DNA of 64,000 nucleotides from an uncultured Nitrososphaerota archaeon (GTDB taxonomy: Archaea > Thermoproteota > Nitrososphaeria > Nitrososphaerales > Gagatemarchaeaceae). Both the position numbers and the translations under genes were made by a program. Shown in pieces: positions 4,774-64,000 of the stretch. How positions within the stretch are numbered: the stretch's first letter is position 1; each line of letters starts with the position of its first letter. The stretch spans positions 64,001-128,000 of the forward strand of contig CAVRAG010000008.1 of assembly GCA_963718895.1 (NCBI GenBank). Direction: 5' to 3'. The notes under the pieces are model-generated. The model was not told the origin of the DNA, did not search any database, and saw nothing but the letters and a program-made list of their open reading frames with translations.

Positions 4774-4861
4774 GTTTTTGCGCTGTGGCCGCCAGAACAT
4801 CGTTATTTAAGATTGGGATTGCCGGAGCACGGCGAAAACTGCCCGAATTCCAAAGCCTCAA

Positions 4862-5901
4862 ATGGCGGAGCGGCCGCCGGTCCCCTGTGAGGCTGGTCCT
4901 TGCGGGCTTCGGGGTCGTCGGACAGAGCTTTGCGGAGCTGCTCGCGCTCAAGCAGAGGGAGCTCGCCAGCGCCTACGGGCTCGTACCGAGGGTCGTCGCC
5001 ATAGTCGACAGCACCGGCTCCGTCACCGACGAGCGCGGCCTGGACGTCAGGAAGATGATAAGGTCAAAGAGGCGACGTGGCTCGGTCCGGACCCGCGGCG
5101 ACGGGAGGACGACCGCCGAGATAATCAAGCAGACGGAGGCGGACGTCATGGTCGAGACGACGCCCACCGACTTCAGGACGGGGGAACCGGGCCTCGGGCA
5201 CATCAGGGCGGCGTTCATCTCGAAGAAGAGCGTCATCACGTGCAACAAGGGGCCGCTGGGGGTCGCGTTCCACGCCCTGGCAGAGCTCGCGAGCCACAAC
5301 TCGGTGCAGTTCAGGTACAGCGGCGCCGTGGGGGGCGGGACGCCCATCCTGGACTTCGGGAGGACCTGCTCGATCGGGGACGAGATAACGAGGGTCACCG
5401 GGATACTCAACGGGACCTGCAACTTCATCCTGACCAAGATGGAGCAGGGCCACCTGAGCTTCGCGAGACGCCCTGGCCCTGGCGCAGAAGGAGGGGTACG
5501 CGGAGACGGACCCCTCGCTCGACATAAACGGGTTCGACACTGCCGTAAAGCTCGTGATCATCGCGAACCACCTGAGCCTGAGCAGGGGCACCATCAGGGA
5601 CGTCGCCGTGAAGGGGATTGCGGATATCTCGCCCGGGGAGGTAGCCCGCGCGGCCTCGAAAGGCAGGGCTCTGAGGCTCATCGCGACCGCGGGCGAGAGG
5701 CTCTCGGTCGCCCCCGCCATGATAGCCAGGGACGACCCCCTCTGCATCAGCGGCCCCCTCAACGCCGTCAAGTTCCACTGCCGGTATTCCGGGCCAAAGG
5801 TGATCGTCGGGAAGGGCGCCGGCGGGCCCGAGACTGCGTCCTCTCTCCTCAGAGACCTGATTGAAATACGCGGCTCGATGGGCGGGGGGCGTACGCCATG
5901 A
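4862..5901 (+). CDS. hom: homoserine dehydrogenase (frameshift near 5466; start uncertain, 4862 or 4887)
   Basis: GFGVVG, CNKGP, AVGGGTP, GILNGTCNFIL; continues in the other frame as AQKEGYAETDP...GKGAGGPETAS. Confidence 0.9.
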
Positions 5902-7344
5902 AGATCGTGATGAAGTTCGGCGGGACTTCGGTCGCCGACGGGAAGAGGATAAGGCACGTGGCGGCCCTGGCCGGACGGTTCTCGCCTGGGAACCAGCTGG
6001 TCGTCGTCTGCTCGGCCATGGGGGACGTGACGGACCAGCTCGTCGCGCTCACCGAGGAGGCCAGGAGCGGGGCTGAGAAGGCGGTCGAGGCCAGGCTCGT
6101 AGCGATCAGGGAGAGCCACGCAGCGGCGCTGAAGGAGGCGGTGAAGTCGCCCGAGATCGCGACGAAGGTCAGGCGTAGAATGGCCGAGACTCTCAACCAG
6201 CTGGAGCAGCTTGCCCGCGGGTCGACGATCCTCAGGGAGCTCACCCCGAGGTCGAGGGACGGGATACTCTCCTGCGGGAGAGAGGCTCTCGAACCCCATA
6301 GTCTGGGGCGCGCTCCTCGAGCAGGGGCTGGACTCGGTCTACCTGACGGGGGGCGAGGCCGGGATAATGACCGACGACAACTTCGGCGACGCCGCGCCCC
6401 TGATGGAGGTGACGGGCTACCAGGTCAAGGAGACCCTGGGCCAGGTCTTGGCCGAAGGGAAGGTCCCGGTCGTGACCGGCTACATCGGCGCGACCCAGGG
6501 GGGCGAGACCACGACGTTCGGCCGCGGGGGCTCGGACCTCACGGCCACGGTGATCGCTTCCTCCATCGGCGCCGACGAGGTGTGGATCTGGACCGACGTC
6601 GACGGCCTCATGACCGCAGACCCAAAGACCGTGCCCGAGGCGCGGGTCCTGACCGAGGTCTCGTACGCCGAGGCAGGCGAGATGGCCGTCTTCGGCGCCA
6701 AGGCGCTTCACCCCCGCACCCTCGAGCCTGTCGCCGAGAAGGGGATACCCGTCCGATTCAGGAACACGTTCAAGCCCGACCACCCCGGGACCGTGGTAAA
6801 GCGCGACCCGAGGGCCTACGCGAAGAACATAGTGAAGTCGGTCGCGCTGGTCAAGGGGGTCGCGATCATCACGTTGACCGGGGCGAGCATGGTGGGCCGC
6901 CCGGGGAGCGCGGCGAGGATCTTCGAAGTGGTGGCCAGGAGCGGTACCAACATCCTGATGATCTCGCAGAGCGTCTCGGAGTCGAACATCAGCATGGTCG
7001 TGAACCGCCCGTCCATGCAGAGGGCGGTGAACGCGCTGGAGCTCATGATGCTGGGGCCGGGAGGGCTCAGGCAGGTCAACTACGAGGACGACGTCAGCGC
7101 GGTCGCGGTCGTCGGCGGCGGGATGAGGGGCGCCAGGGGGATAGCGGCCAAGGTCTTCGGCGCCGTCGCCTCGAGCGGGATCAACGTGAGGATGATCGCC
7201 CAGGGCTCCTCCGAGCAGAACATATCGTTCGTCGTCCATGAGGCCGACGCCAAGGAGGCGGTAAGGGCGGTCCACAGGGCGTTCCGGCTGGACAGGCTAA
7301 ATAGTGGAAAGCTCGCTCCGTCGAAGCCGCAGAGCAACGATTGA
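5898..7344 (+). CDS. lysC: aspartate kinase (frameshift near 6275)
   Basis: MKFGGTSV, VVCSAMG; second frame has GERLS, FGRGGSDLTA, WTDVDG and two ACT domains. Confidence 0.92.
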
Positions 7345-9155: not shown

Positions 9156-9554
9156 TCAGGGACCGTCGGCCGGAAGCGTGTCCTTGATGAAGTCCCGGCG
9201 GATCGGAGTGAAGAACTCGACTAGCGTCGTGTCGGCTCCCGCGTCGATCTTGAGTCCGTGCGTGACGGAAGGGGGGATATAGTAGGAGTCCCCTTTCTTC
9301 ATCTTCCACGATTTCTCTCCCACCCTGAAGACCCCGCTCCCCTCGAGGCAGACTCCGTACTGCGCCTGGGGATGAGAGTGCAGAGGCACTTCGGAACCGC
9401 CATTGAGCTTGTACAGGGCTGCGGTCGCCCCGGAGTTGTTGACGAGGATCCTTCTCCGGACCCCCGGCATGAAGTCGTGCCATGACTCGGTCTTGTCGCT
9501 CCAGAATCCCGCCGCGTTGTAATCGTTTTCAGTCCCTTTCGTTGTGTTGGACAA
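9156..9554 (-). CDS. cupin domain protein
   Basis: PLHSHPQAQ...GDSYYIPPSVTHG...FTPIR cupin_2 motifs. Confidence 0.85.
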   Translation of the reverse strand: MSNTTKGTENDYNAAGFWSDKTESWHDFMPGVRRRILVNNSGATAALYKLNGGSEVPLHSHPQAQYGVCLEGSGVFRVGEKSWKMKKGDSYYIPPSVTHGLKIDAGADTTLVEFFTPIRRDFIKDTLPADGP

Positions 9555-9716
9555 TCGCGGACTGCGACTTTGGCTCAGCCTATATAAATTTCAGGCCGAG
9601 AAAGTGAGGGGGAGGCTCGGCGGCAGAGGCCGTCGGGACAGGGCCCATACCTCACGGTGGGCGATAATCGTAAAGAAGAAGCACTATCGGACCGCGTGGG
9701 TTAGACGAGTCGTCCT

Positions 9717-10034
9717 CTAGTGGCTTGCCTTTGATACGATTTCGGATGAGATCTCGTCGCGGGTCTTTCCCTCGGTGGAGATACCCAGCCGCTTTGCCGT
9801 GTCTATGAGGGTATCGCCTGTGCCGGGAATTGCGGGAGCAGACGCGACCGCTGGCGCAGGAGCGCCCGCCACGAGGGGGACGTCGCCAGACGCAACCTTG
9901 GATGCGTCGTTGAACTCCTTTCTCGCTAGGCCAATCGACTTTGCCAGTTCTGGAATCTTCTTCGGACCGTACATCAGGAAGACGATTGCCACAACTGCGA
10001 TCACTACCCATTGCAGTGGATCAGTTAGTGCCAT
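9717..10034 (-). CDS. tatA: twin-arginine translocase subunit TatA
   Basis: TM helix followed by YGPKKIPELAKSIGLARKEF; archaeal tail AKRLGISTEGKT. Confidence 0.9.
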   Translation of the reverse strand: MALTDPLQWVVIAVVAIVFLMYGPKKIPELAKSIGLARKEFNDASKVASGDVPLVAGAPAPAVASAPAIPGTGDTLIDTAKRLGISTEGKTRDEISSEIVSKASH

Positions 10035-10211
10035 GCTTGAAACGGCGTTGCGAGGAGTTATTTAAGCGTTAGCGGGTCCGATGGGACCTGTGCTAAGTTG
10101 ACGGGTGATAAACAAAGGTGTTAAGCATTGGGCGATGAGAAAACGACAACTGACCACAAGCATGGACATATCCATGTACAATCGTCGCTGGTCAAGAGAT
10201 GACCGAGCACA

Positions 10212-10715
10212 TTGAGTAAGTCTCAACCTATTCTCGTTGCGCTTCTCACATCTTCGATCACATTTCTCCAAGGTGCTTACGTTTGGGTAATCACAGACAA
10301 TCCCATACTTGACATGTTCTACGGTGAACATGGGATAAATGGCATTGCAATTGCGTTAAGGGACGCTACCATCTCAATGACATGGCTTCCAAGTATGTCA
10401 AGGTTCCTCGACTATGTTTGTATGACAGTGCTGATTGTGGTATTTTCATCCGTGTATCTTCTCTCAAAAGGTTCGAGGCTTTTGGCTCTCCTCAATTCAT
10501 TCGCAGTATCAACATTCTTGTTGGTCGAACTTTCACTACTCGTGTACTTTTTCGATAACACCGACTTCTACGTTCACTTCACAGACTCCTCTCCGCAATG
10601 GTTCACCAATGAATTCGTCTTGGTGGTGTGCGGCGCTGCGCTCATGGTGTCTGTCTCTTTTGAGTTCTATGTTCGCAGAGTCAATCCTGAAATCTTGCGG
10701 AGGTTTTCAAGATGA
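10212..10715 (+). CDS. hypothetical membrane protein (AT-rich, ~4 TM)
   Basis: 167-aa ORF with four hydrophobic stretches, in a locally low-GC patch. Confidence 0.55.
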   Translation: MSKSQPILVALLTSSITFLQGAYVWVITDNPILDMFYGEHGINGIAIALRDATISMTWLPSMSRFLDYVCMTVLIVVFSSVYLLSKGSRLLALLNSFAVSTFLLVELSLLVYFFDNTDFYVHFTDSSPQWFTNEFVLVVCGAALMVSVSFEFYVRRVNPEILRRFSR

Positions 10716-10829
10716 GGTGCACCACCCGAAGGTCAACAGGCCTTGCCATCCCCCAGACACCTAACAGGACCTCCGAGGGACAGGGAAGTGGCGCGGCGCC
10801 GCGACCGGCTCCGAAAGCTGACCCTCCAC

Positions 10830-12366
10830 TCAGAGATACTCCCACACCTTCTTCCCCTTGTAGTTGTAGACGATCGACTTCGGCGCAGTCACGTAGTTGA
10901 TCGTGTAGCTGATGCCGGACTCCCCGATCCCCGAGTCCTTTCTCCCGCCGTAGGGGTAGTAGCCTATGCCGTGTCGTGGCTGGTCGTTGATGTAGATCGC
11001 TCCGACCTCCAGGGTGCGGATCAGCCGCCGGATGCGGTTCATGTCCCGCCCGAAGACCGCCGCATCGAGGCCGTACCTCCTGCCGTTCGCCAGCTCGATG
11101 GCCTGTCTCAGGTCTGAGAACGGCGTGATGGTCGCGATGGGGGCGAAGACCTCACCTCTGTAGAGCTCGGTGGTCACGAGGACCTCGCCCGAGACCTCGA
11201 GCAGGGTGGGCTCGACGTAGTTCGTCTCGAAGGCCCGGCCACCGGTCAGGACCAGGGCGCCCTTCGCCTCGGCGTCGCGAGTGGCTTCGCGCATCGTGGC
11301 CGCCGCATCCATGTCCAGGAGTGGGCCCATGGTCGTCTCGGGCTCCCTGGGGTCCCCCACCCTTATCTTGCCCAGCTCTCCGACGACGAGGCGCTTGAGT
11401 TCGTCGTAGACCCTCTGCTCCACGAAGACGTGCTTGATGGCGTCGCACCTCTGTCCCGCGAAGCTGGTCATCCCACCCACGATCTTCTGGGCGCTTGCCG
11501 GAAGGTCTGCATCGTCTAGCACGATTGCAGGGTCGCCGCCGCCAAGCTCGAGCACGTACCTCTTTATCCCCGCGAGCTTCAGGATCTCCCTGCCGCTCTG
11601 GGTGCTCCCCGTCAGCGTTATCCCCGCGACCCTCTCGTCGCTAGCGATCTTTGCAAGCTGCGAACCCCTCATCGTGAGGACGGCCAGTGCCTTCTTCGGG
11701 AACCCCGCAACCTCGAGCACCCTCGCCAGGAGGAGCGACGCGATAGGCGTGGAAGAGGCTGGTTTGATCGATTATCGCGTTGCCCGCTATCGTCGAGTAG
11801 ACGAGCTTGTTCACGGCGTCGAAGAGCGGATAGTTGAAGGGGTTTATGGCGAGCACGACCCCGATGGGCTCCCTCCGCACGAGTCCCTCGGTCTCGATTG
11901 TCTCGCCGCTCCAGTCGCCGGGGATGTAGTCGCCGATCAGCTTCCTGGTGTCGAAGTCAGATTTCCTCAGCCGTTCCACCGCTGCCCGTACCTCGCCCAG
12001 CGCGCCGGCTCCGGTCTTCCCGGCGTTGACAGTCAGGACGGCCGCAAAGTCCTCAGTGTACTCCTCCATCAGGTCGGCGGCCCTGTGGTAGACGTCCAAC
12101 CTCCTAGTTCCCGGCATCTCCCTCAGTGCCGCGCGGCCCTCCTGGAAGACCTGGGCGAAGGCGCCGGAGGCTATCTTCTCACTTAGTACGGGGACCTGCG
12201 CGACGACGGAGAGGTCGATGGGAGACCTGACGTCAGACCAGTCCTCGCCCGAGTACCAGCTCCCTGCGAGGAACGTCTTGAACCTAGGGAGCACGCCGTC
12301 CTCCAGGGTGTCACAAATGGGGTCAAACGCATCCGATTTCAGTTTGATTTCCGGCTGGGTCACCAT
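10830..12366 (-). CDS. gapN: non-phosphorylating glyceraldehyde-3-phosphate dehydrogenase GAPN (frameshift near 11769)
   Basis: ALDH motifs INPFNYP, TGST, LELGGGDP, GQRC; archaeal GAPN-type GDYIPGDWS, RHGIGYYPYGGRKDSG and YNYKGKKVWEY. Confidence 0.85.
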
Positions 12367-19559: not shown

Positions 19560-20786
19560 CTAGTCGCCTCCCGCCCCAGCGGTGTACCCAAACGCCGCTT
19601 GGAACTGTGCGAGGCTCACAGGCTTCAGCTTGGTAGGTGTCGTCGCTACCATGAGCGCCTGCGGCGTTAGCCCCTCGTTGTAGAAGTTGCCTGTGTTGAC
19701 TCCGTTGAATCCCACGTATTCCCAACCTACCATGCCTCTGTTGCCTCCGTGCATGGGGTCCATCAGGAAGCCGCAGTAGGTCATGAAGAAGAGCTCAGAG
19801 AAGAAATCCGCAGGATTGATGTTGTTGAACGACGACGCGCCGGGTTTTCCCCCCGCAAGGTCGGTGAGCACCTGAGCCCTCACGGTTGGACTGAGTGTCT
19901 CGAATGCTCCGCCATAGGCGCTGCTTGAGTAGCTCTCCAGACCAAGCACTCCGAAGCGCCAGAACGCGCGAAAGTTGAAGGAGTACTGGTATCCGTAGCC
20001 CGCCGAGATCGACCCTGCCACCGTGCCTCCTTGGTACGTCACGCCATCGACGGTGATTGGTCCTTTCGTTCCTGGTGGTACGAATGGGCCTTGGGCGTAC
20101 ATGTTGCCAGCTTTGCCGTACTCTCCGGCAAGTTGCCTGTCGATGAAGAAGAGAGCTCCTGCCTCCTTCCCACCAGGGCCGTTGCTGTCTGACGGAATGA
20201 TTGTCTCGATCGCCGCTTCTATTGCCGCGGCCTCCTGGGACCCGAGCGTCTGCAACCCGTCGGCCACACTCATGAGGCTCTGCGTCTCATTCTGAAGTGC
20301 ACTGACCTGTGAGTTCGCGCTCGTCACAGCCGAGTTAAGCGAGGTGACCTGGCCGTTCAGGCTGGTAATCTGTCCGTTGGCGCTCGTGAGCGCCTGTTGG
20401 GTCGCCGTGAGCTGCGAGCTTGCAGTGTTAAGCTGCGCGCTCACCCCGCTCAACTGAGAGTTCGCGCTCGAGAGCTGGGCCTGGGTCGAGGTCAGCTGGT
20501 TGTTCAGCGAGGAGACCTGGCCCTGGGCCGAGCTGAGCTGAGATGCGGTCGAGTTGAGCTGGTTCTGCGTTGAAGAGAGCTGATTTTGGGTAGAGCTGAG
20601 CTCGTTCTGGAGGGAGGCCAATGTGCTGCTCGAGTTGCTATTATTCGTACCTATCAGGCTGTTGTAATATGCGACACTTGCAACGCCTGCCACTGCGGCA
20701 CCTGCAACTACGCCGGCGCCGATCTTTAGAAACGATCTGCGGTCAGCTGGTTTTTGCTGCCCGCTGGACTGGCTGCTATCGGCCAT
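19560..20786 (-). CDS. gluconate 2-dehydrogenase subunit 3 (gamma)-like protein with Tat signal and long coiled coil, copy 1
   Basis: DRRSFLK + TM; heptad S/Q/N-rich region; ETIIPSD..PGGKEAG..FIDRQL, GFLMDPMHGGNRGMVGWEYVGF. Confidence 0.85.
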   Translation of the reverse strand: MADSSQSSGQQKPADRRSFLKIGAGVVAGAAVAGVASVAYYNSLIGTNNSNSSSTLASLQNELSSTQNQLSSTQNQLNSTASQLSSAQGQVSSLNNQLTSTQAQLSSANSQLSGVSAQLNTASSQLTATQQALTSANGQITSLNGQVTSLNSAVTSANSQVSALQNETQSLMSVADGLQTLGSQEAAAIEAAIETIIPSDSNGPGGKEAGALFFIDRQLAGEYGKAGNMYAQGPFVPPGTKGPITVDGVTYQGGTVAGSISAGYGYQYSFNFRAFWRFGVLGLESYSSSAYGGAFETLSPTVRAQVLTDLAGGKPGASSFNNINPADFFSELFFMTYCGFLMDPMHGGNRGMVGWEYVGFNGVNTGNFYNEGLTPQALMVATTPTKLKPVSLAQFQAAFGYTAGAGGD

Positions 20787-23025: not shown

Positions 23026-24189
23026 CTAGGCGCTCCCCTTCTGGAACTGGGCGAGGCTCGCCGGTTTCAGCGGTACCGGGGTCGTCGAGACCATCAGCTG
23101 CTTGGGAGTGTAGCCTTCACCGTAGAAGTTCCCCGTGTTCACGCCGTTGAACCCCACATACTCCCAGCCGACCATGTTCCGGTTGCCGCCGTAGATGGGG
23201 TCCATGAGGAACCCGCACCAAACCAGCATCGTCAGCTCGTAGGCAAAATCGACGGGGTTTATGCTGGCGAAGGAGGTCGGCTTGCCGTTCCAAAGGTCCT
23301 GCAGTGCAGCAAGTTGGTTCGCCGCCGAGAGAGTCTCGAAGTTCCCACCGTAGGCGCTGTTCGCGTACGCCTCGAACGCGGCTAGGCCATATCTGAAGAA
23401 CTCCCGCATGTTCATCTGGTACTGGTATCTCGTACCCGCCGTGACTCGTTGGACCGGGGTGCCGCTCGAGTAGGTCACGCCCTGCACCGTGACGGGGCCC
23501 TTCAGTCCGGACATGATGAACGGCCCCTGCATGTAGACGTTCCCGTTCTTTCCGTAGTCACCGGCCAGGACGCGGTCCATGAAGTATATCGCCCCGGCCT
23601 CCTTTGCGCCAGGACCGTTGCTGTCAGAGGGGATTATCGTTTCCGCTATCGCCGCGAGGACGGATTGCTCGCTGTTCGACAAAGTGAGGAACCCCATCGT
23701 CGTGTCTATCTGGACTTGGAGGGCTGCAGCGCTGGCGTTCGCGCCCGACACGGCTGAGTTGAGCGAGGTCACCTGGCCGTTCAGGCTTGTGATCTGCCCG
23801 TTCGCGCTCGTCAGAGCCTGCTGGGTCGCCGTGAGCTGACTGTTCACGCCGCTCAGCTGAGAGTTCGCGCTGCTGAGCTGGGCCTGGGTCGAGGTAAGCT
23901 GGTTGTTCAGCGAGGAGACCTGCCCCTGCGCCGAGGAGAGCTGGGACGCCGTCGAGTTGAGCTGGTTCTGCGTGGAACTGAGCTGCTCCTGGGTAGAGGA
24001 GAGCTGGTTCTGAAGCGCGGCCACCGAGCTGCTCGAGCTGTTGTTGTTTCCGCCTACGACGCTGTTGTAGTATGGTACTTCTACAACGGTAGCTATTGCG
24101 GCGCCCGCGACCACGCCAGCGCCGATCTTTAGGAACGTCCTGCGGTCAGCAGGTTTTGGCTGCCCGCCAGACTGGCTGCTGTCTGCCAT
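23026..24189 (-). CDS. gluconate 2-dehydrogenase subunit 3-like protein with Tat signal and coiled coil, copy 2
   Basis: DRRTFLK + TM + heptads; GFLMDPIYGGNRNMVGWEYVGF; start MADSSQS set by homology to copy 1. Confidence 0.85.
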   Translation of the reverse strand: MADSSQSGGQPKPADRRTFLKIGAGVVAGAAIATVVEVPYYNSVVGGNNNSSSSSVAALQNQLSSTQEQLSSTQNQLNSTASQLSSAQGQVSSLNNQLTSTQAQLSSANSQLSGVNSQLTATQQALTSANGQITSLNGQVTSLNSAVSGANASAAALQVQIDTTMGFLTLSNSEQSVLAAIAETIIPSDSNGPGAKEAGAIYFMDRVLAGDYGKNGNVYMQGPFIMSGLKGPVTVQGVTYSSGTPVQRVTAGTRYQYQMNMREFFRYGLAAFEAYANSAYGGNFETLSAANQLAALQDLWNGKPTSFASINPVDFAYELTMLVWCGFLMDPIYGGNRNMVGWEYVGFNGVNTGNFYGEGYTPKQLMVSTTPVPLKPASLAQFQKGSA

Positions 24190-24202
24190 TCGCAATACAT
24201 AT

Positions 24203-24220
24203 GTTATATTCCTATATAAC
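24203..24220 (-). promoter_or_regulatory. palindromic operator/TATA box of operon copy 2
   Basis: GTTATATTCCTATATAAC, same sequence and same spacing to the ATG as in copy 1. Confidence 0.65.
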
Positions 24221-24401
24221 TTATGTGTTGCATCTTCAGCGGACACGTTACAAATTCCCCCGAAGAGCTGTTCTATTTCTGCGAAATCTTCACGATTCCC
24301 AGGGAAAAAGCCAGAACTGCCCCTGATAATTCCTCTAGACTCATTGTTCGAAACTCTTAAAAGAACTATGACGGGCCCCTCGTTTTGGAGAACCTGAAGG
24401 A

Positions 24402-59264: not shown

Positions 59265-59849
59265 ATGTCCTCTGATCTGGGAACAGCATTCTTGGGTTCG
59301 GCTTATCTCGTCCTGACGGTCTTTGTGGTCGTCGAGCGCCTGCTCAGGAAGACGTCCGACGCCAGGTCACTGCGCAGGGGGACCTCTGACCGCGGGACCA
59401 CCTCGCTCGTCGGCCTCGCGTTCGGGACGGGCATCATCCTCCCTCTGATCCTGGACTTCCTTTCCATCGGAGTCTTCCCCATAACTCTCGTGGAAGGATC
59501 GGTAGCTCTCGCAGCCATGATCCTTGGTCTAGGGCTTCGAGTATGGGCGGCGCGCACACTCGGCGCGTACTACACGAGGACGCTGCAGACGAGCGAGGGG
59601 CAAAAGGTGGTGGAGGACGGCCCCTACAAGGCGGTCCGACATCCGGGCTACCTCGGCGGCATCATCCTGTGGTCCGGCTTTGGCGTTCTCTCGGGCAACG
59701 CGATCGCCGCCCTTCTATTCCCTCCCTTGTTCATCCTGGCCTATCTCTACAGGATCAGCTTCGAAGAGAAGATGCTCGTGAAGCAGCTTGGACAGGGCTA
59801 TCTCGATTACCAGAAGAGATCCAAGAGACTAGTACCCGGCGTCTACTAA
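59265..59849 (+). CDS. isoprenylcysteine carboxyl methyltransferase (ICMT/PEMT) family protein
   Basis: LRVWA..TLG, GPYKAVRHPGYLG, RI..EE..L, Y.DY...KRLVP. Confidence 0.88.
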   Translation: MSSDLGTAFLGSAYLVLTVFVVVERLLRKTSDARSLRRGTSDRGTTSLVGLAFGTGIILPLILDFLSIGVFPITLVEGSVALAAMILGLGLRVWAARTLGAYYTRTLQTSEGQKVVEDGPYKAVRHPGYLGGIILWSGFGVLSGNAIAALLFPPLFILAYLYRISFEEKMLVKQLGQGYLDYQKRSKRLVPGVY

Positions 59850-59883: not shown

Positions 59884-60188
59884 CCACAGACTATGTTCAT
59901 AATTCGTATAAGATACGTCTACGTTTACGCTACTAGGCGTTTGAATTACGCCAGTGATGTTCTGCGTCGAATAGGCCTCCATCTGCCCGATGCCTTGTGT
60001 TCCGGTGGTCATGTCTGACAGGAGTATGAACGTTGGCGGGGCTAATAAATTTCAAATCATTGATTCCGATAGCCGCCGGGGTAACGATAGCGAAGCGATT
60101 GTAGGTGGCCCGATAGTAGTAGATTTTAGACCTGTGGCCGCGCTCTATAGCGTAGCGCTCATCGCCCCGACTTGACGGGGCGGCGGCC

Positions 60189-60278
60189 ACTGTGCGGTTA
60201 GACAGCCTTAGCTGATAGGGCCGCCGAAATGGAATGATAGGCGGAGCGGAAGCGGAGCCGGTAGTAGGCGGCGAAGTG
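60189..60278. repeat. ~90-bp diverged direct repeat, copy 1
   Basis: ACTGTGCGGTTAGACAGCCTTAG...GCGGAGCCGGTAGTAGGCGGCGAAGTG; about 72/90 identical to copy 2 by hand alignment. Confidence 0.85.
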
Positions 60279-60410: not shown

Positions 60411-60773
60411 TTACTCTATTATTCTCGGTGGTTCGTATTTTCCCCTTGTCAAGCGCTCGATATGACGGTTTACGCGGAGCGAGATGTACGCTATGACTGC
60501 CAAGAAAGGTAAATAGAGAACGAAGGCGGCAATGCTGGAGTAAATCCAGATGGTCTGCGTGTTGTAGATGATGGTGTATCCGGTATTGAGTCCGGAGACA
60601 TAGTTCGCGGTCAATATGAAAATGAGAAACGACGAGAAGAGACCAGCGGTGGCAATACCCATCATCGTTTTTCTAAGGCCGTCGATTTTCGCTAAAACAG
60701 CTTGAATCTTGGCGTATTCCTGCGCGGTCAGTGGGTGGTCTGGAACGGCGGCGGGAGGCGGTCCTTGGCTCAA
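60411..60773 (-). CDS. hypothetical two-TM membrane protein (passenger between the repeats)
   Basis: 120-aa ORF with two hydrophobic helices and an upstream TTAAATA box. Confidence 0.65.
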   Translation of the reverse strand: MSQGPPPAAVPDHPLTAQEYAKIQAVLAKIDGLRKTMMGIATAGLFSSFLIFILTANYVSGLNTGYTIIYNTQTIWIYSSIAAFVLYLPFLAVIAYISLRVNRHIERLTRGKYEPPRIIE

Positions 60774-60832: not shown

Positions 60833-60921
60833 ACTGTGTGGTTGGACAGTCTTAGCAGATAGTGCTGCCGGTTTGAACGGTAGGCAGTGCGGGAGCGGAG
60901 CCGGTGATAGGCGGCGTAGTG
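60833..60921. repeat. ~90-bp diverged direct repeat, copy 2
   Basis: ACTGTGTGGTTGGACAGTCTTAG...GCGGAGCCGGTGATAGGCGGCGTAGTG. Confidence 0.85.
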
Positions 60922-60964: not shown

Positions 60965-61296
60965 CTACTTCAGATCGGGTTCTTTTCGAACGGGTCTTAC
61001 GTCAGTCATGTGATAAATCAACTCCTTCTTGCAATGAGGGCATATGGCCTTGAAACCTGTTACTCCCATAAGTCTCTCCCAAACCGAGGTATCTCTGACG
61101 CCACCTTTTGGCTGGATTTCGGTCAGGTCGATGGTCTGAAACAACTCCGGCACACAACTCCGTTATGGGAGTAGACGTAATCTTCGATTAAGCCCTGAAT
61201 TATGTCGTTCTTCTTGCGCTCTCCCTGTTCTTCCATGACCGTGATGCTGAACTTCTTCCACAACTCGTCTGGAACGTCGATTGTGGTCTTGACCAA
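60965..61296 (-). CDS. ribbon-helix-helix (CopG/Arc-like) regulator, probably fused to a zinc ribbon (frame break near 61140)
   Basis: Hand translation from TTG 61296: MVKTTIDVPDELWKKF...KNDIIQGLIEDYV...VVCRSC; the adjacent frame supplies CPHCKKE. Confidence 0.65.
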
Positions 61297-61393
61297 GTCG
61301 GAGGCGGGATTTCAGGCCTAGGTATTAACCTTCTCCCCGTGGATACGGGTTTAAGGGAAGATTAAATATCGCCTTATCGACGGGGATACGGGC

Positions 61394-62620
61394 ATGATGT
61401 CCAAACTGGTCGCGGTGAGTGCTGAGGAGTATGCGGAGCGCCGCCTGAATCCACTGTGGAAGGACGCGGTGTTCCCTTTTCTGTCGGAGTCCAGAAGGGT
61501 TTCGCTCGAAGGTTGCGGTTCTCTCTACGCTATGGGGAAGTGCGACGACTGCGGAGCCAAGGGCGCGGTTCGGGTCGGCTGTAAGGACAACCTGTGCTAC
61601 CCATGCGACCTGGGAAGAAGGCGACTGCAGGTCGCGGACAAGATGGGGGTTCTTGATCGAATCTATGGTGAACTGCATGAACCTGTTGCCTGCTCAGGTA
61701 TCACCTTCACCAGTCCAAGCGATACATGGAAGCTGGTTCGGGAATACTGCCGAAAGTGGAATCGGACTATCTGGGAAGAGCTCAAGGTGATGGAAGGAAT
61801 GGTAAGAGACATCTTGGCAGAATACTACGGAGGGGAACATCTTCCTTCCAAGGGTCGCCAGAAGCGTCTCTGTCGGTACGTCATCGGCGGGGAAGTTGCA
61901 GCGCAAGCGTTTCACTCGTTCCATCCGGAGAAGAATGGGAATGTGTGGCGAGGATTTGACCCTCACGTTCATGCTAGCGTGTACTCGGTGATGTTTGACC
62001 GAGCATACGCGATTCAGGGTCTTGAAGGTGAGGAGTTGGGGGCGTTCGTGAAACGGAGGCTCGGTCTCTCCAACTCTGAGGTTCAGGCTCTTCGTCTTAA
62101 GCTTGCTTCCGAGTACAAAAGGCGCTTCGAGAATCGCTACGGGAAGTCGAAGTTTCAGACGGTGGGGAAGGGGCCGAAGGGTGAAGACTCATCCTGGGTT
62201 GTGAACTACCGGTACTATCCGCACCGCCATGACGTTGAGCGCTGGACATCGTACATGTTCAGGTCGGAGGTTCAGGAGTGTTACCGCGAGATAGTGTGGA
62301 ACAGTCGCGCTCCTTCGGCGGAGGGCGAGAAGGAGTGGTTCAAGGAACTTCTCTTGACGAGGGAAAGAGGGTCGCATCGTCATGTGGCCTTCGGGTGGGT
62401 CTCATCTCCAGTGCTGAACAGGTATGCGAAACGTCTGGGAGTGCAGTTTGAGCCCAAGGCGAAGCGGGACGCTGAAAGGCGGGTGGTTCCCTGCTTCAAG
62501 TGTGGTGTTGGAGTTCTTCGGTTCGAATGGTATGAGAGGAAGGTGACGCTGAGCGAGCTTGGAGCTTCGAGCATCCCGATCTTGGGCAGGGGGTATCAAG
62601 GGGGCGGGCCCCGTGGTTGA
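61394..62620 (+). CDS. IS91/ISCR-like HUH endonuclease (rolling-circle Rep or transposase)
   Basis: N-terminal Zn domain C..CDDC..CKDNLCYPC; motif I ITFTSP; HUH motif PHVH; Tyr motif YMFR; AFGWVS; C-terminal CFKCG. Confidence 0.75.
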   Translation: MMSKLVAVSAEEYAERRLNPLWKDAVFPFLSESRRVSLEGCGSLYAMGKCDDCGAKGAVRVGCKDNLCYPCDLGRRRLQVADKMGVLDRIYGELHEPVACSGITFTSPSDTWKLVREYCRKWNRTIWEELKVMEGMVRDILAEYYGGEHLPSKGRQKRLCRYVIGGEVAAQAFHSFHPEKNGNVWRGFDPHVHASVYSVMFDRAYAIQGLEGEELGAFVKRRLGLSNSEVQALRLKLASEYKRRFENRYGKSKFQTVGKGPKGEDSSWVVNYRYYPHRHDVERWTSYMFRSEVQECYREIVWNSRAPSAEGEKEWFKELLLTRERGSHRHVAFGWVSSPVLNRYAKRLGVQFEPKAKRDAERRVVPCFKCGVGVLRFEWYERKVTLSELGASSIPILGRGYQGGGPRG

Positions 62621-62864
62621 GTCCTTCGATGAGCGGTACGCGAAGGCGCTAGTGCTCAAGAAGGTGAAGCAGGGAGCCAAGTGGGTCGCGGAGACGCCGC
62701 TAGTTCCTCAATACATCTGGATGGTTGATACTAATCCCTATGCGAACGACTTTTGCGCTAATAGAATCTTCCAACTGAAGATGGCGGCTTGGCCAAATCG
62801 TGATCTTCAACTCTCTGGAGATGTCACGAGGCAGAAGAGGCTAAGCCCGTTGTTTAGGCCTTGA
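62613..62864 (+). CDS. hypothetical protein translationally coupled to the HUH gene
   Basis: GTG start overlapping the Rep stop; 83 aa. Confidence 0.45.
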   Translation: MVESFDERYAKALVLKKVKQGAKWVAETPLVPQYIWMVDTNPYANDFCANRIFQLKMAAWPNRDLQLSGDVTRQKRLSPLFRP

Positions 62865-62883: not shown

Positions 62884-64000
62884 CTAGTCTGGAAGCATAG
62901 CGTCCACGAGTTTTATCTCGCTGTCTGTCAGCCCGTAAGATTGGTAGACAATCTGGTCCAACTTGTGGTTCTTCAGGTCTATCTGCTCTCTTAGAGCCAT
63001 TCCTCTTTCGGATTCTTCGTCCACTTTGAACAGTTTCTGATTCAAATCCGTGAGTTCATCAACGTATTCCTTGATGAGCTTCGAGGTATTCGGGGACGGA
63101 GTCTTAATTGGAAGCAGGCGAATTTGTGGTGGTCCGACACGCATGAATCCGCCTGCAAGTGAGAGTGCCTGGAACATGTTCTTGTAACAGAATGAGAGCA
63201 ACTTGCTGTTGAGTAGCCCTAGAAGTATTTCATTAGGGATTTGCGACTTTGTTACTATGACAGTGGACTTTCCTGCAAGGTACTCACCCTTACTATCGAG
63301 GAAGCATTCAAGGCGCTTATTCATGCCACCGATGATGATTTTGGGAGTTTTGGCTTGCTCAGCTCTCTTTGGGAGGAGTTCACGGATGTCGTCCTTCTTC
63401 ACAATGGGGCGGTCGTACGTGCCCGCAATCCTTGTCTTCTTAACGCCCCAAAGGGAAGCATACCGGTCAATCGTGCCAGTATTGATGACTTTGAAGTAGT
63501 CTTGGTGGCTACCGAGTTCCTTCACAATTTCGATGGTGTCGTAGGCCTCTGAGACCGTGGCAGCGCCACCTACCTCTGCAAGGTTTTCAAGAGTTGTCGA
63601 GTGTTTGGAGATTTTTTCAAACAGGTCGTTTTCCTTTCTGCTGAAAAGGGGCGACCAAGTAGCGAGGTTGTGAAGGTTTGCTTGGTCGAACTCGTTAGTC
63701 TCCTGCACTGCGATTGTACCAACCTCATTTTGACTGGCTACCTGAAGAGAAATCTTGTCAGAGGGAACTTCCTTCTTCAGAATCACGACGATGGGATAAA
63801 CGGCAGCATTGAACACATGGATAGTCGAGTAATCTCGGATAGCCAAGATTTTGTAGCGTTGCAGCAGCCTCCGGGTTGCGGCAGCGTAGTCTGCCGAAAG
63901 AAGTTTGTTTGGTACAATCATTCCGAGGTATCCGCCCGGGCGGAGAAGCTTGAGCCCCCTTTCCAAAAAGAGGCAAAATATATCCCAGTTCCCTTCGGCG
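62884..64000 (-). CDS. Eco57I/TaqI-like N6-adenine DNA methyltransferase or type IIG RM enzyme, C-terminal part
   Basis: WDIFCLFLERGLKLLRPGGYLGMIVPNKLL, VF.AAVYP; TaqI_C-like KIII...LLGLLNSKL...IRLLPI...LDQIVYQSYGLT..EI. Confidence 0.85.
   Translation of the reverse strand, partial: AEGNWDIFCLFLERGLKLLRPGGYLGMIVPNKLLSADYAAATRRLLQRYKILAIRDYSTIHVFNAAVYPIVVILKKEVPSDKISLQVASQNEVGTIAVQETNEFDQANLHNLATWSPLFSRKENDLFEKISKHSTTLENLAEVGGAATVSEAYDTIEIVKELGSHQDYFKVINTGTIDRYASLWGVKKTRIAGTYDRPIVKKDDIRELLPKRAEQAKTPKIIIGGMNKRLECFLDSKGEYLAGKSTVIVTKSQIPNEILLGLLNSKLLSFCYKNMFQALSLAGGFMRVGPPQIRLLPIKTPSPNTSKLIKEYVDELTDLNQKLFKVDEESERGMALREQIDLKNHKLDQIVYQSYGLTDSEIKLVDAMLPD

Follow-up and report, generated by a model that had tools for sequence, protein, structure and literature searches.

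What kind of genetic unit do three open reading frames (ORFs) near the right end of a 64,000-nt stretch of archaeal DNA belong to: a transposon, a virus or a plasmid? The stretch, called the window here, is part of contig CAVRAG010000008.1 from an uncultured Nitrososphaerota archaeon, whose genome is a metagenome-assembled genome (MAG; 80.5% complete, 11 contigs, one of 1.6 Mb). A sequence-only reading had assigned the ORFs, of 408, 57 and 101 aa, to an IS91/ISCR-like rolling-circle module, and had offered an integrated rolling-circle plasmid, a virus or a gene-capturing transposon as its source. All three ORFs are present as described there. We find that they are likely to be the replication-control module of a decaying integrative rolling-circle plasmid-like element (a 'cryptic integrated element'). 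The element measures 7.3 kb, and the flagged genes are only part of it.

Limits of the island and its attachment sites

The GC content of the DNA falls from ~0.63 to ~0.50 at window position ~59900 and rises again ~7 kb further on, past the end of the window. An exact 9-bp direct repeat, TATGTTCAT, stands at both edges of the drop and bounds a low-GC island of 7,313 bp between its copies, from window position 59892 to about 67213. The left copy, the attL core, occupies 59892..59900; the right copy, the attR core, lies at 10205-10213 of the extended locus L002 (window-equivalent 67205-67213; an L002 coordinate plus 57000 gives the window coordinate). On the element side the cores are continued by arms that are perfect 11-nt inverted copies of each other, AATTCGTATAA at attL (59901..59911) and TTATACGAATT at attR (L002 10195-10205). 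The left-end sequence as a whole reads ACTATGTTCATAATTCGTATAA (L002 2890-2911) and the right-end sequence TTATACGAATTATGTTCATTAACC (L002 10195-10218). The next window had been named as the place to look for an integrase, att sites and capsid genes; the first two are indeed found just past the window end, whereas no capsid gene was recognised.

The integrase is a tyrosine-recombinase-like gene at the right end that reads inward from the repeat. At the left end, its first ~40 codons (intN, 59893..60012, minus strand) read out of the element across the att core, and when the island is closed into a circle in silico their reading frame matches, across the core, that of the right-end segment. A related island in another archaeal MAG, at locus L003, yields upon the same treatment one uninterrupted ORF of ~437 aa, which begins ~40 codons in from the left end and spans the core to run on into the right-end gene. 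Because the integrase gene reads across the att repeat, integration splits it in the manner of SSV-type enzymes. Integrases of the SSV1 ('suicidal') type are known from fuselloviruses and from plasmids such as pT26-2; as in those, attP lies inside the integrase gene and integration partitions the gene to both ends of the element. The present enzyme differs from them in its target, which is upstream of a prolyl-tRNA synthetase (ProRS) gene in the window and at the 3' end of RtcB in L003 and not in a tRNA gene, and in its partner, a rolling-circle initiator. No tRNA was found as integration target at either site, and Rfam has no family in the island. All five integrase copies examined carry AGER, HxxR (SHYLRKRF) and GH...Y boxes, with S for H in the HxxR box of two of them, a pattern that we take, from the motifs of the family, to be the catalytic one of tyrosine recombinases. 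A weak match to phrog_216 (E 0.0011) is also seen. From this gene layout, the enzyme would be an SSV-type integrase with attP inside its own gene.

The DNA just inside the left end is itself conserved. Its first ~60 nt are retained as DNA in three elements, and within them a 16-nt box, AGGCGTTTGAATTACG (59935..59950, plus strand), is exact, allowing A/T at one position, in four independent elements (those of the window, L003, L024 and L004). BLASTP between two 40-aa intN peptides gave no alignment. Since this stretch is conserved as DNA while the peptides do not align, it is probably a DNA site, and the box could be an integrase arm site or a Rep nick site. The box also has 14 matches in viral contigs, which we regard as chance because none of these contigs encodes any element protein.

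The insertion site, just upstream of the host ProRS gene, is unoccupied in related genomes. In G007, a one-contig genome of the same genus, a peptidase gene is followed directly by ProRS with no island, and G005 has an uninterrupted ATTATGTTCATTAACC upstream of ProRS and no low-GC island; the region is therefore not syntenic core genome. A third genome, G001, keeps at the same site a right-end remnant that is 90.6% identical, on a contig starting ~1 kb upstream, and this could stem from the same insertion, from a sister one or from a contig break. The remnant (L015 806-1063, on G001:C44) comprises ~50 codons of the right-end part of the integrase and attR upstream of ProRS. Between the peptidase gene and the island, the source genome has an ICMT-family methyltransferase gene (L002 2265-2849, window 59265-59849) that is absent there in G007. 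As the G007 peptidase gene abuts ProRS without it, the genus varies, island aside, in what lies upstream of ProRS. Synteny based on this gene gave nothing further: the G011 contig ends ~430 bp after it, and the G007 homologue lies elsewhere.

All genes of the element are single-copy in the source genome, and its organization recurs elsewhere. The L003 island is bounded by an 11-bp repeat overlapping the 3' end of RtcB, with 6,596 bp from copy to copy; its att core is TAGCCTTTGAT, and the copy is apparently intact. Window and L003 islands have in common the regulator, the Rep gene, the small ORF and the recombinase, and differ in cargo: the window island has a Type IIG restriction-modification (RM) gene, that of L003 has N6/N4 methylases. 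Three further loci (L039, L040 and L041) each hold a Rep-like gene (21-25% identity) 2-4 kb from the same integrase family (31-46%), in a low-GC island of 5.5-7 kb. Thus in all five loci with enough flank, the window locus L002 and L003 included, a Rep-like gene and this integrase family lie together within a low-GC island. A blind search for att repeats in L039-L041 was ambiguous. Of 201 genomes of the order, 9 (G000 included) have the Rep family; none of the five other genomes of the genus does. Metagenome contigs provided five short loci with the family, and those listed for Rep relatives include element-sized contigs of 6606, 6924 and 8047 bp. The L003 MAG contains a second integrase-family copy (L003 1262-2533, plus strand), 36% identical to the first and ~7 kb from it, beside a low-GC patch at L003 2500-4000; given this position, that genome likely carries a second, different element of the same integrase type.

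The Rep protein and its partners

The 408-aa ORF (61394..62620, plus strand) is identified by alignments, a structural model and structure and profile searches as a predicted HUH rolling-circle replication initiator (Rep), with a Zn-binding domain at its N-terminus and CxxC at its C-terminus. A set of 5.8 billion proteins contains 13 relatives, none with a Pfam domain, and a profile search retrieved 101 cluster representatives at E<=1e-3; it is therefore a real gene and not a chance ORF. The motifs listed in the sequence-only reading are present in order (a Cys-rich N-terminus, FTFT, HVH, a single Tyr in YMFR, FGW and the terminal CxxC) and are conserved in both a narrow alignment of 13 sequences and a wide one of 36. 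In the wide alignment C41, C63, H191, Y287 and C367 are invariant, and C68, T106 (of FTFT), H193, R290 (of YMFR) and G334 (of FGW) are at least 90% conserved. Y287 is the only conserved Tyr; the sequence there is YMFRS, with no Tyr at +4, so that the single-Tyr reading of Rep is right.

An AlphaFold model built on the family alignment (mean pLDDT 76, pTM 0.78) places H191 and H193 on strand 191-197 and Y287 and R290 on helix 278-288, C-terminal to the HUH motif, which is the Rep-type order. In a structure search against representatives, the leading rows were mostly HUH nickases: the NS1 proteins of bocavirus (Z 7.6, rmsd 4.3, 170 residues aligned) and MVM (Z 7.0), then SIRV1 ORF119 (5.4), AAV5 Rep (5.3), TrwC (5.0), Helitron (4.8) and IS200 transposase (4.7); the same search lists B19 NS1, vientovirus Rep, IS200/IS605 transposases and the relaxases MobM and MobA. 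Foldseek has TrwC/TraI as the top PDB matches (E 5e-3). Viral structure models gave 12 matches at E<=1e-3, and the named rows past this cut (E ~2e-3 to 7e-3) are rolling-circle Reps, namely HRPV-1 protein 1 (E 1.9e-3), a Vibrio phage replication protein and microvirus initiators. The predicted fold of Rep is thus that of an HUH/Rep nuclease, as had been expected, with modest Z scores.

Its family placement is less sharp. Pfam assigns the window protein neither to Rep_1 (PF01446) nor, at E<=1, to Y2_Tnp (PF04986), and Zn_Tnp_IS91 (PF14319) matches below threshold (E 0.045, 14.2 bits vs a 26.3-bit cut-off). The last domain scores above its cut-off in the distant relatives P0042, P0083 and P0101, and an N-terminal Zn-binding domain of IS91 type, as postulated at the outset, is probable. 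Among 69 distant family members scanned with Pfam, a few match weakly to Rep_1, REP_ORF2-G2P, Y2_Tnp or Zn_Tnp_IS91; the Y2_Tnp matches are marginal and number three, and the best Rep_1 score is 32.7 bits vs a cut-off of 33.2. PHROGs, NCBIfam and PADLOC have no match to the window protein, and a PDB sequence search returned nothing with the single sequence and chance-level rows with the profile. Of 30 language-model neighbours, 23 are Rep_1 clusters. The nearest named family is probably Rep_1, a plasmid Rep family. We read the protein, from sequence and model together, as a putative HUH rolling-circle initiator that stands between plasmid Rep_1 proteins and IS91 transposases, in a family without a curated model.

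The regulator gene is divergently transcribed, as first noted, and it is broken. The flagged 57-aa RHH-like ORF (61123-61296) is a piece of a 114-aa gene that is uninterrupted in L003; together with a 62-aa Zn-ribbon ORF (60965-61153) it makes up a frameshifted gene at 60965..61296 on the minus strand. In tblastn, residues 1-54 and 53-107 of the L003 protein align to two different frames of the window, and the break is a 1-nt indel at a short run. The proposed CopG-like ribbon-helix-helix (RHH) assignment fared less well: Pfam gives no match, and the best PDB match of the RHH-like ORF, the RHH domain of NikR, is weak (E 0.44). A gene divergent from Rep in the distant element L024 (1026-1658, minus strand) has a winged-helix-like N-terminal part and a C-terminal Zn-ribbon resembling that of the window and L003 regulators. 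From this likeness, it may be the Zn-ribbon that is conserved as the functional part of the regulator. The space between regulator and Rep (61297..61393), conserved between window and L003 only, contains two TATA-like boxes and a small palindrome, CCCGT-GGAT-ACGGG, and would serve as promoter and operator; its single-stranded DNA (ssDNA) fold is not significant (z -1.75).

Downstream, the 101-aa ORF (62559..62864, plus strand; probably starting with GTG at 62613) shares 62 nt with the end of the 408-aa ORF, and a homologue directly follows the Rep gene in six of six other loci that extend past Rep, which agrees with the coupling originally noted. Its model (pLDDT 71.6) has no fold match above Z 2.5 and Atlas scores of at most 0.84, no match was found in Pfam, PHROG, NCBIfam or PADLOC, and the predicted complex with Rep scored 0.00, which gives no verdict.

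These parts suggest how the element would work. Rep would nick one strand at the origin of the free circle and prime rolling-circle replication, holding the 5' end through Tyr287 and a metal through the His191/His193 pair. The divergently transcribed RHH-like/Zn-ribbon protein would probably repress the shared control region, and the product of the small ORF that follows the Rep gene would act as an accessory. Integration would be carried out by the SSV-type tyrosine recombinase, not by Rep: recombination with the TATGTTCAT site upstream of ProRS would place ~40 integrase codons at the left end and all others at the right end, the gene being split because attP lies inside it. The Type IIG RM gene would travel as cargo.

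Decay, assembly error and other origins

Several observations weigh against this account of an integrative rolling-circle plasmid. The structural matches of Rep reach at most Z 7.6, where the tool rates values below 8 as common, and Thg1-like palm proteins score level with the HUH matches (Z 7.1-7.2). The integrase falls below the cut-offs of known recombinase models (Phage_integrase E 0.098; XerA NF040815 24.5 vs 220 bits), and its split geometry is not confirmable in L039, where the frame is open in the integrated state too. No origin or nick site was found: three non-coding stretches fold no better than shuffles (z -1.46, -0.16 and -1.75), and sites of the CTTGATA type, the nick-site consensus of Rep_1-type plasmids, occur 0-1 times per island, which is chance level. 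By tblastn, deposited phage and plasmid records contain no relative of Rep, each set giving one chance-level row (E 0.3 and 0.1), and the viral contigs searched hold no relative of the family. Neither a free circle nor an empty-site joint was seen in one public run (0.05 of words); four low-depth contigs came from this run, two of them identical to a flank and to the attR junction. The Rep gene being open is not statistically meaningful, given the break rate of the island, and some of the breaks could be assembly errors, since the host assembly has at least one split host gene. Set against the island limits, the att repeat, the split integrase and the HUH Rep, these points leave the integrated rolling-circle plasmid, one of the options first proposed, as the probable answer.

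The alternative that survives best accepts the same element and holds that it is intact and active, the breaks being errors in the consensus of a metagenome assembled from long reads. With L003 as reference, the right-end part of the integrase is frameshifted at three places in the window copy and the regulator at one; with the RM gene, which is divided into two ORFs, there are about five gene breaks in the 7.3-kb island. The status of the genome as a MAG, the 1-nt indel at a short run in the regulator and the presence of split genes in host DNA all lend some weight to assembly error. When 64 ORFs from the ~60 kb of host DNA in the window were surveyed with Pfam, one split gene was clear and two were suspect. 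The clear case is a host aldehyde dehydrogenase (window 10833-12366, minus strand) in two overlapping ORFs that match Aldedh profile positions 176-461 and 9-162, a frameshift that reflects either a pseudogene or an assembly error. Two long ORFs at window 4785-7238 (plus strand) match domain starts only (Homoserine_dh 1-41 of 173, AA_kinase 1-88 of 234) and may contain frameshifts that escape notice because other frames stay open in GC-rich DNA. The L003 MAG likewise has a split host gene: RtcB beside its element (L003 15625-17083, minus strand) consists of two overlapping ORFs covering profile positions 182-426 and 1-159, a frameshift in that assembly. Three observations speak the other way. 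Breaks in the island are at least ~14-fold denser than in the ~60 kb of host DNA; homopolymer runs of at least 5 nt are not denser there, at 1.9 per kb in the island vs 2.7 per kb in the host; and the truncated integrase-end remnant that is all G001 keeps at the same site suggests an old insertion. We consider an intact, active element unlikely. Real decay is moderately favoured over assembly error, and the window copy is probably no longer mobile.

A second possibility is a provirus of a small unrecognised archaeal virus, of pleolipovirus-like size, with a rolling-circle Rep and structural genes too divergent to detect. The size of ~7 kb, the appearance of HRPV-1 protein 1 among the viral structural neighbours of Rep and a predicted 120-aa membrane protein in the island would fit such a virus. 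However, Pfam, PHROGs and PADLOC recognise no capsid, spike or packaging ATPase, L003 and the other loci do not have the membrane protein, about a third of the island is RM cargo, and viral contigs hold no relative. As no capsid or other virion gene is recognised, the virus option is without support, and we regard it as very improbable.

Least probable of all is the IS91/ISCR-like rolling-circle transposon first suspected, in which the HUH protein would move the island and capture neighbouring genes with the recombinase as passenger: the faint Zn_Tnp_IS91 and Y2_Tnp signals described above and the GTTC at the centre of the att core (GTTC is an IS91 target tetranucleotide) favour it, but Rep has no Y2_Tnp match and one Tyr in place of YxxxY, the island is single-copy, it terminates in a recombinase att site whose direct repeat and inverted arms lie inside the integrase gene, the L003 core lacks both GTTC and CTTG, and the integrase accompanies the Rep-like gene in five of five loci with enough flank, and the candidate was rejected.

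Known relatives, cargo and neighbouring features

The plasmid-like element resembles several known systems in part. With IS91 transposases (Y2_Tnp plus Zn_Tnp_IS91), Rep shares an N-terminal Zn-binding domain followed by the HUH core; its one Tyr where they have two, and the single-copy, att-bounded island, set it apart. With Rep_1 initiators of the pC194/pUB110 type it shares FTxT, HUH and then a single Tyr (YxxR/K), whereas it has extra Zn-binding modules at both ends, no Rep_1 match and no detectable CTTGATA-type site. The RepA protein of SNJ1, a haloarchaeal sphaerolipovirus, is likewise an archaeal rolling-circle initiator with an N-terminal Zn domain and a faint Zn_Tnp_IS91 signal. The 36-sequence Rep profile aligns to it with an hhalign probability of 77% (E 2e-5) over the Zn domain and motif I only (93 N-terminal columns), and the 13-sequence profile with a probability of 1.3%; there is no alignment over the HUH and Tyr region. 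SNJ1 is moreover an episomal virus with capsid genes, whereas the present element has an integrase and no recognised virion genes.

The closest parallel is with the thaumarchaeal cryptic integrated elements described, in the part of the source available to us, in PMC6563490. These are alike in being small integrase-bearing islands of Nitrososphaeria-type genomes, with replication genes of mobile genetic elements, RHH or helix-turn-helix (HTH) regulators and RM cargo. One of them, NitAQ6f-E2, has a rolling-circle endonuclease homologous to SNJ1 RepA, for whose IS91-like nature that text cites Wang et al. 2018 (J Gen Virol 99:416); another, NitEve-E3, carries MCM alongside an SSV1-like split integrase. 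As far as that text extends, rolling-circle Rep and split integrase are found in separate elements, whereas the present element has both, a pairing met again in several genomes. The comparison with NitAQ6f-E2 is by its description only, which in this part of the source gives neither integrase type nor Rep sequence. The literature searched, including the available part of PMC6563490, whose supplement may bear on the point, yielded no description of a rolling-circle Rep combined with an SSV-type split integrase.

The element is an uncatalogued archaeal integrated plasmid of a known kind, within which it may represent a new family. In Nitrososphaeria-type archaea, the known mobilome consists mainly of integrated plasmid-like elements. 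The host genome encodes a eukaryote-type topoisomerase IB, which among archaea is typical of Thaumarchaeota. A search for amoA found no match in the 80.5%-complete genome, and is uninformative because a control search was equally empty. It is conceivable, if somewhat short of an even chance, that the islands form an undescribed family of small (5-7 kb) integrative rolling-circle replicons in non-ammonia-oxidising Nitrososphaeria-type soil archaea, equipped with Rep, its partner, an SSV-type integrase and the 16-nt box as arm and nick site. If so, intact members such as that of L003 would be natural vector backbones for archaea now without genetic tools; the accessible text of PMC6563490 proposes small integrated elements as candidate shuttle-vector backbones. 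The comparison defines a recurrent 5-7-kb element type by its limits, att site, self-splitting integrase, Rep family without a curated model and conserved partner ORF, and points to the apparently intact L003 relative as testable. To reclassify a suspected IS91/ISCR transposon as a probably decaying integrative rolling-circle plasmid is useful for annotation and not surprising.

RM cargo had been anticipated, and the island indeed contains a Type IIG gene, present as two overlapping ORFs and not as a single polypeptide. The 629-aa methyltransferase/specificity piece (62884..64000 in the window, minus strand) continues to window-equivalent 64773 and is followed by a 251-aa nuclease piece (L002 7751-8506). 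The PADLOC profile PDLC03604 is matched at E 2.2e-79 and 6e-31; the 251-aa piece covers its positions 27-255 and the 629-aa piece its positions 276-740, and Pfam finds Eco57I, N6_Mtase, TaqI_C and HSDR_N in the gene.

Towards the left end, the gene of the 120-aa membrane protein (60411..60773, minus strand) has a weak DUF2269 match only and no homologue in L003 or the other loci compared. It is bracketed by a direct repeat of ~88 nt whose copies (60191..60278 and 60835..60921, both plus strand) are about 80% identical and occur nowhere else in the genome. A 36-nt piece of this repeat recurs in the G001 remnant (L015 84-120).

Outside the island, a second low-GC patch lies at window 9500-11000 (GC 0.50 in the 10001-11000 bin vs ~0.62 around it). 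It adjoins the split aldehyde dehydrogenase gene, holds ORFs at 9655-10011 and 10212-10712 that have no Pfam match, and may be another small insertion. Elsewhere in the window, two paralogous genes of ~407 aa (19563-20786 and 23029-24246, minus strand) each encode a long coiled-coil-like N-terminal part and a Gluconate_2-dh3 domain.

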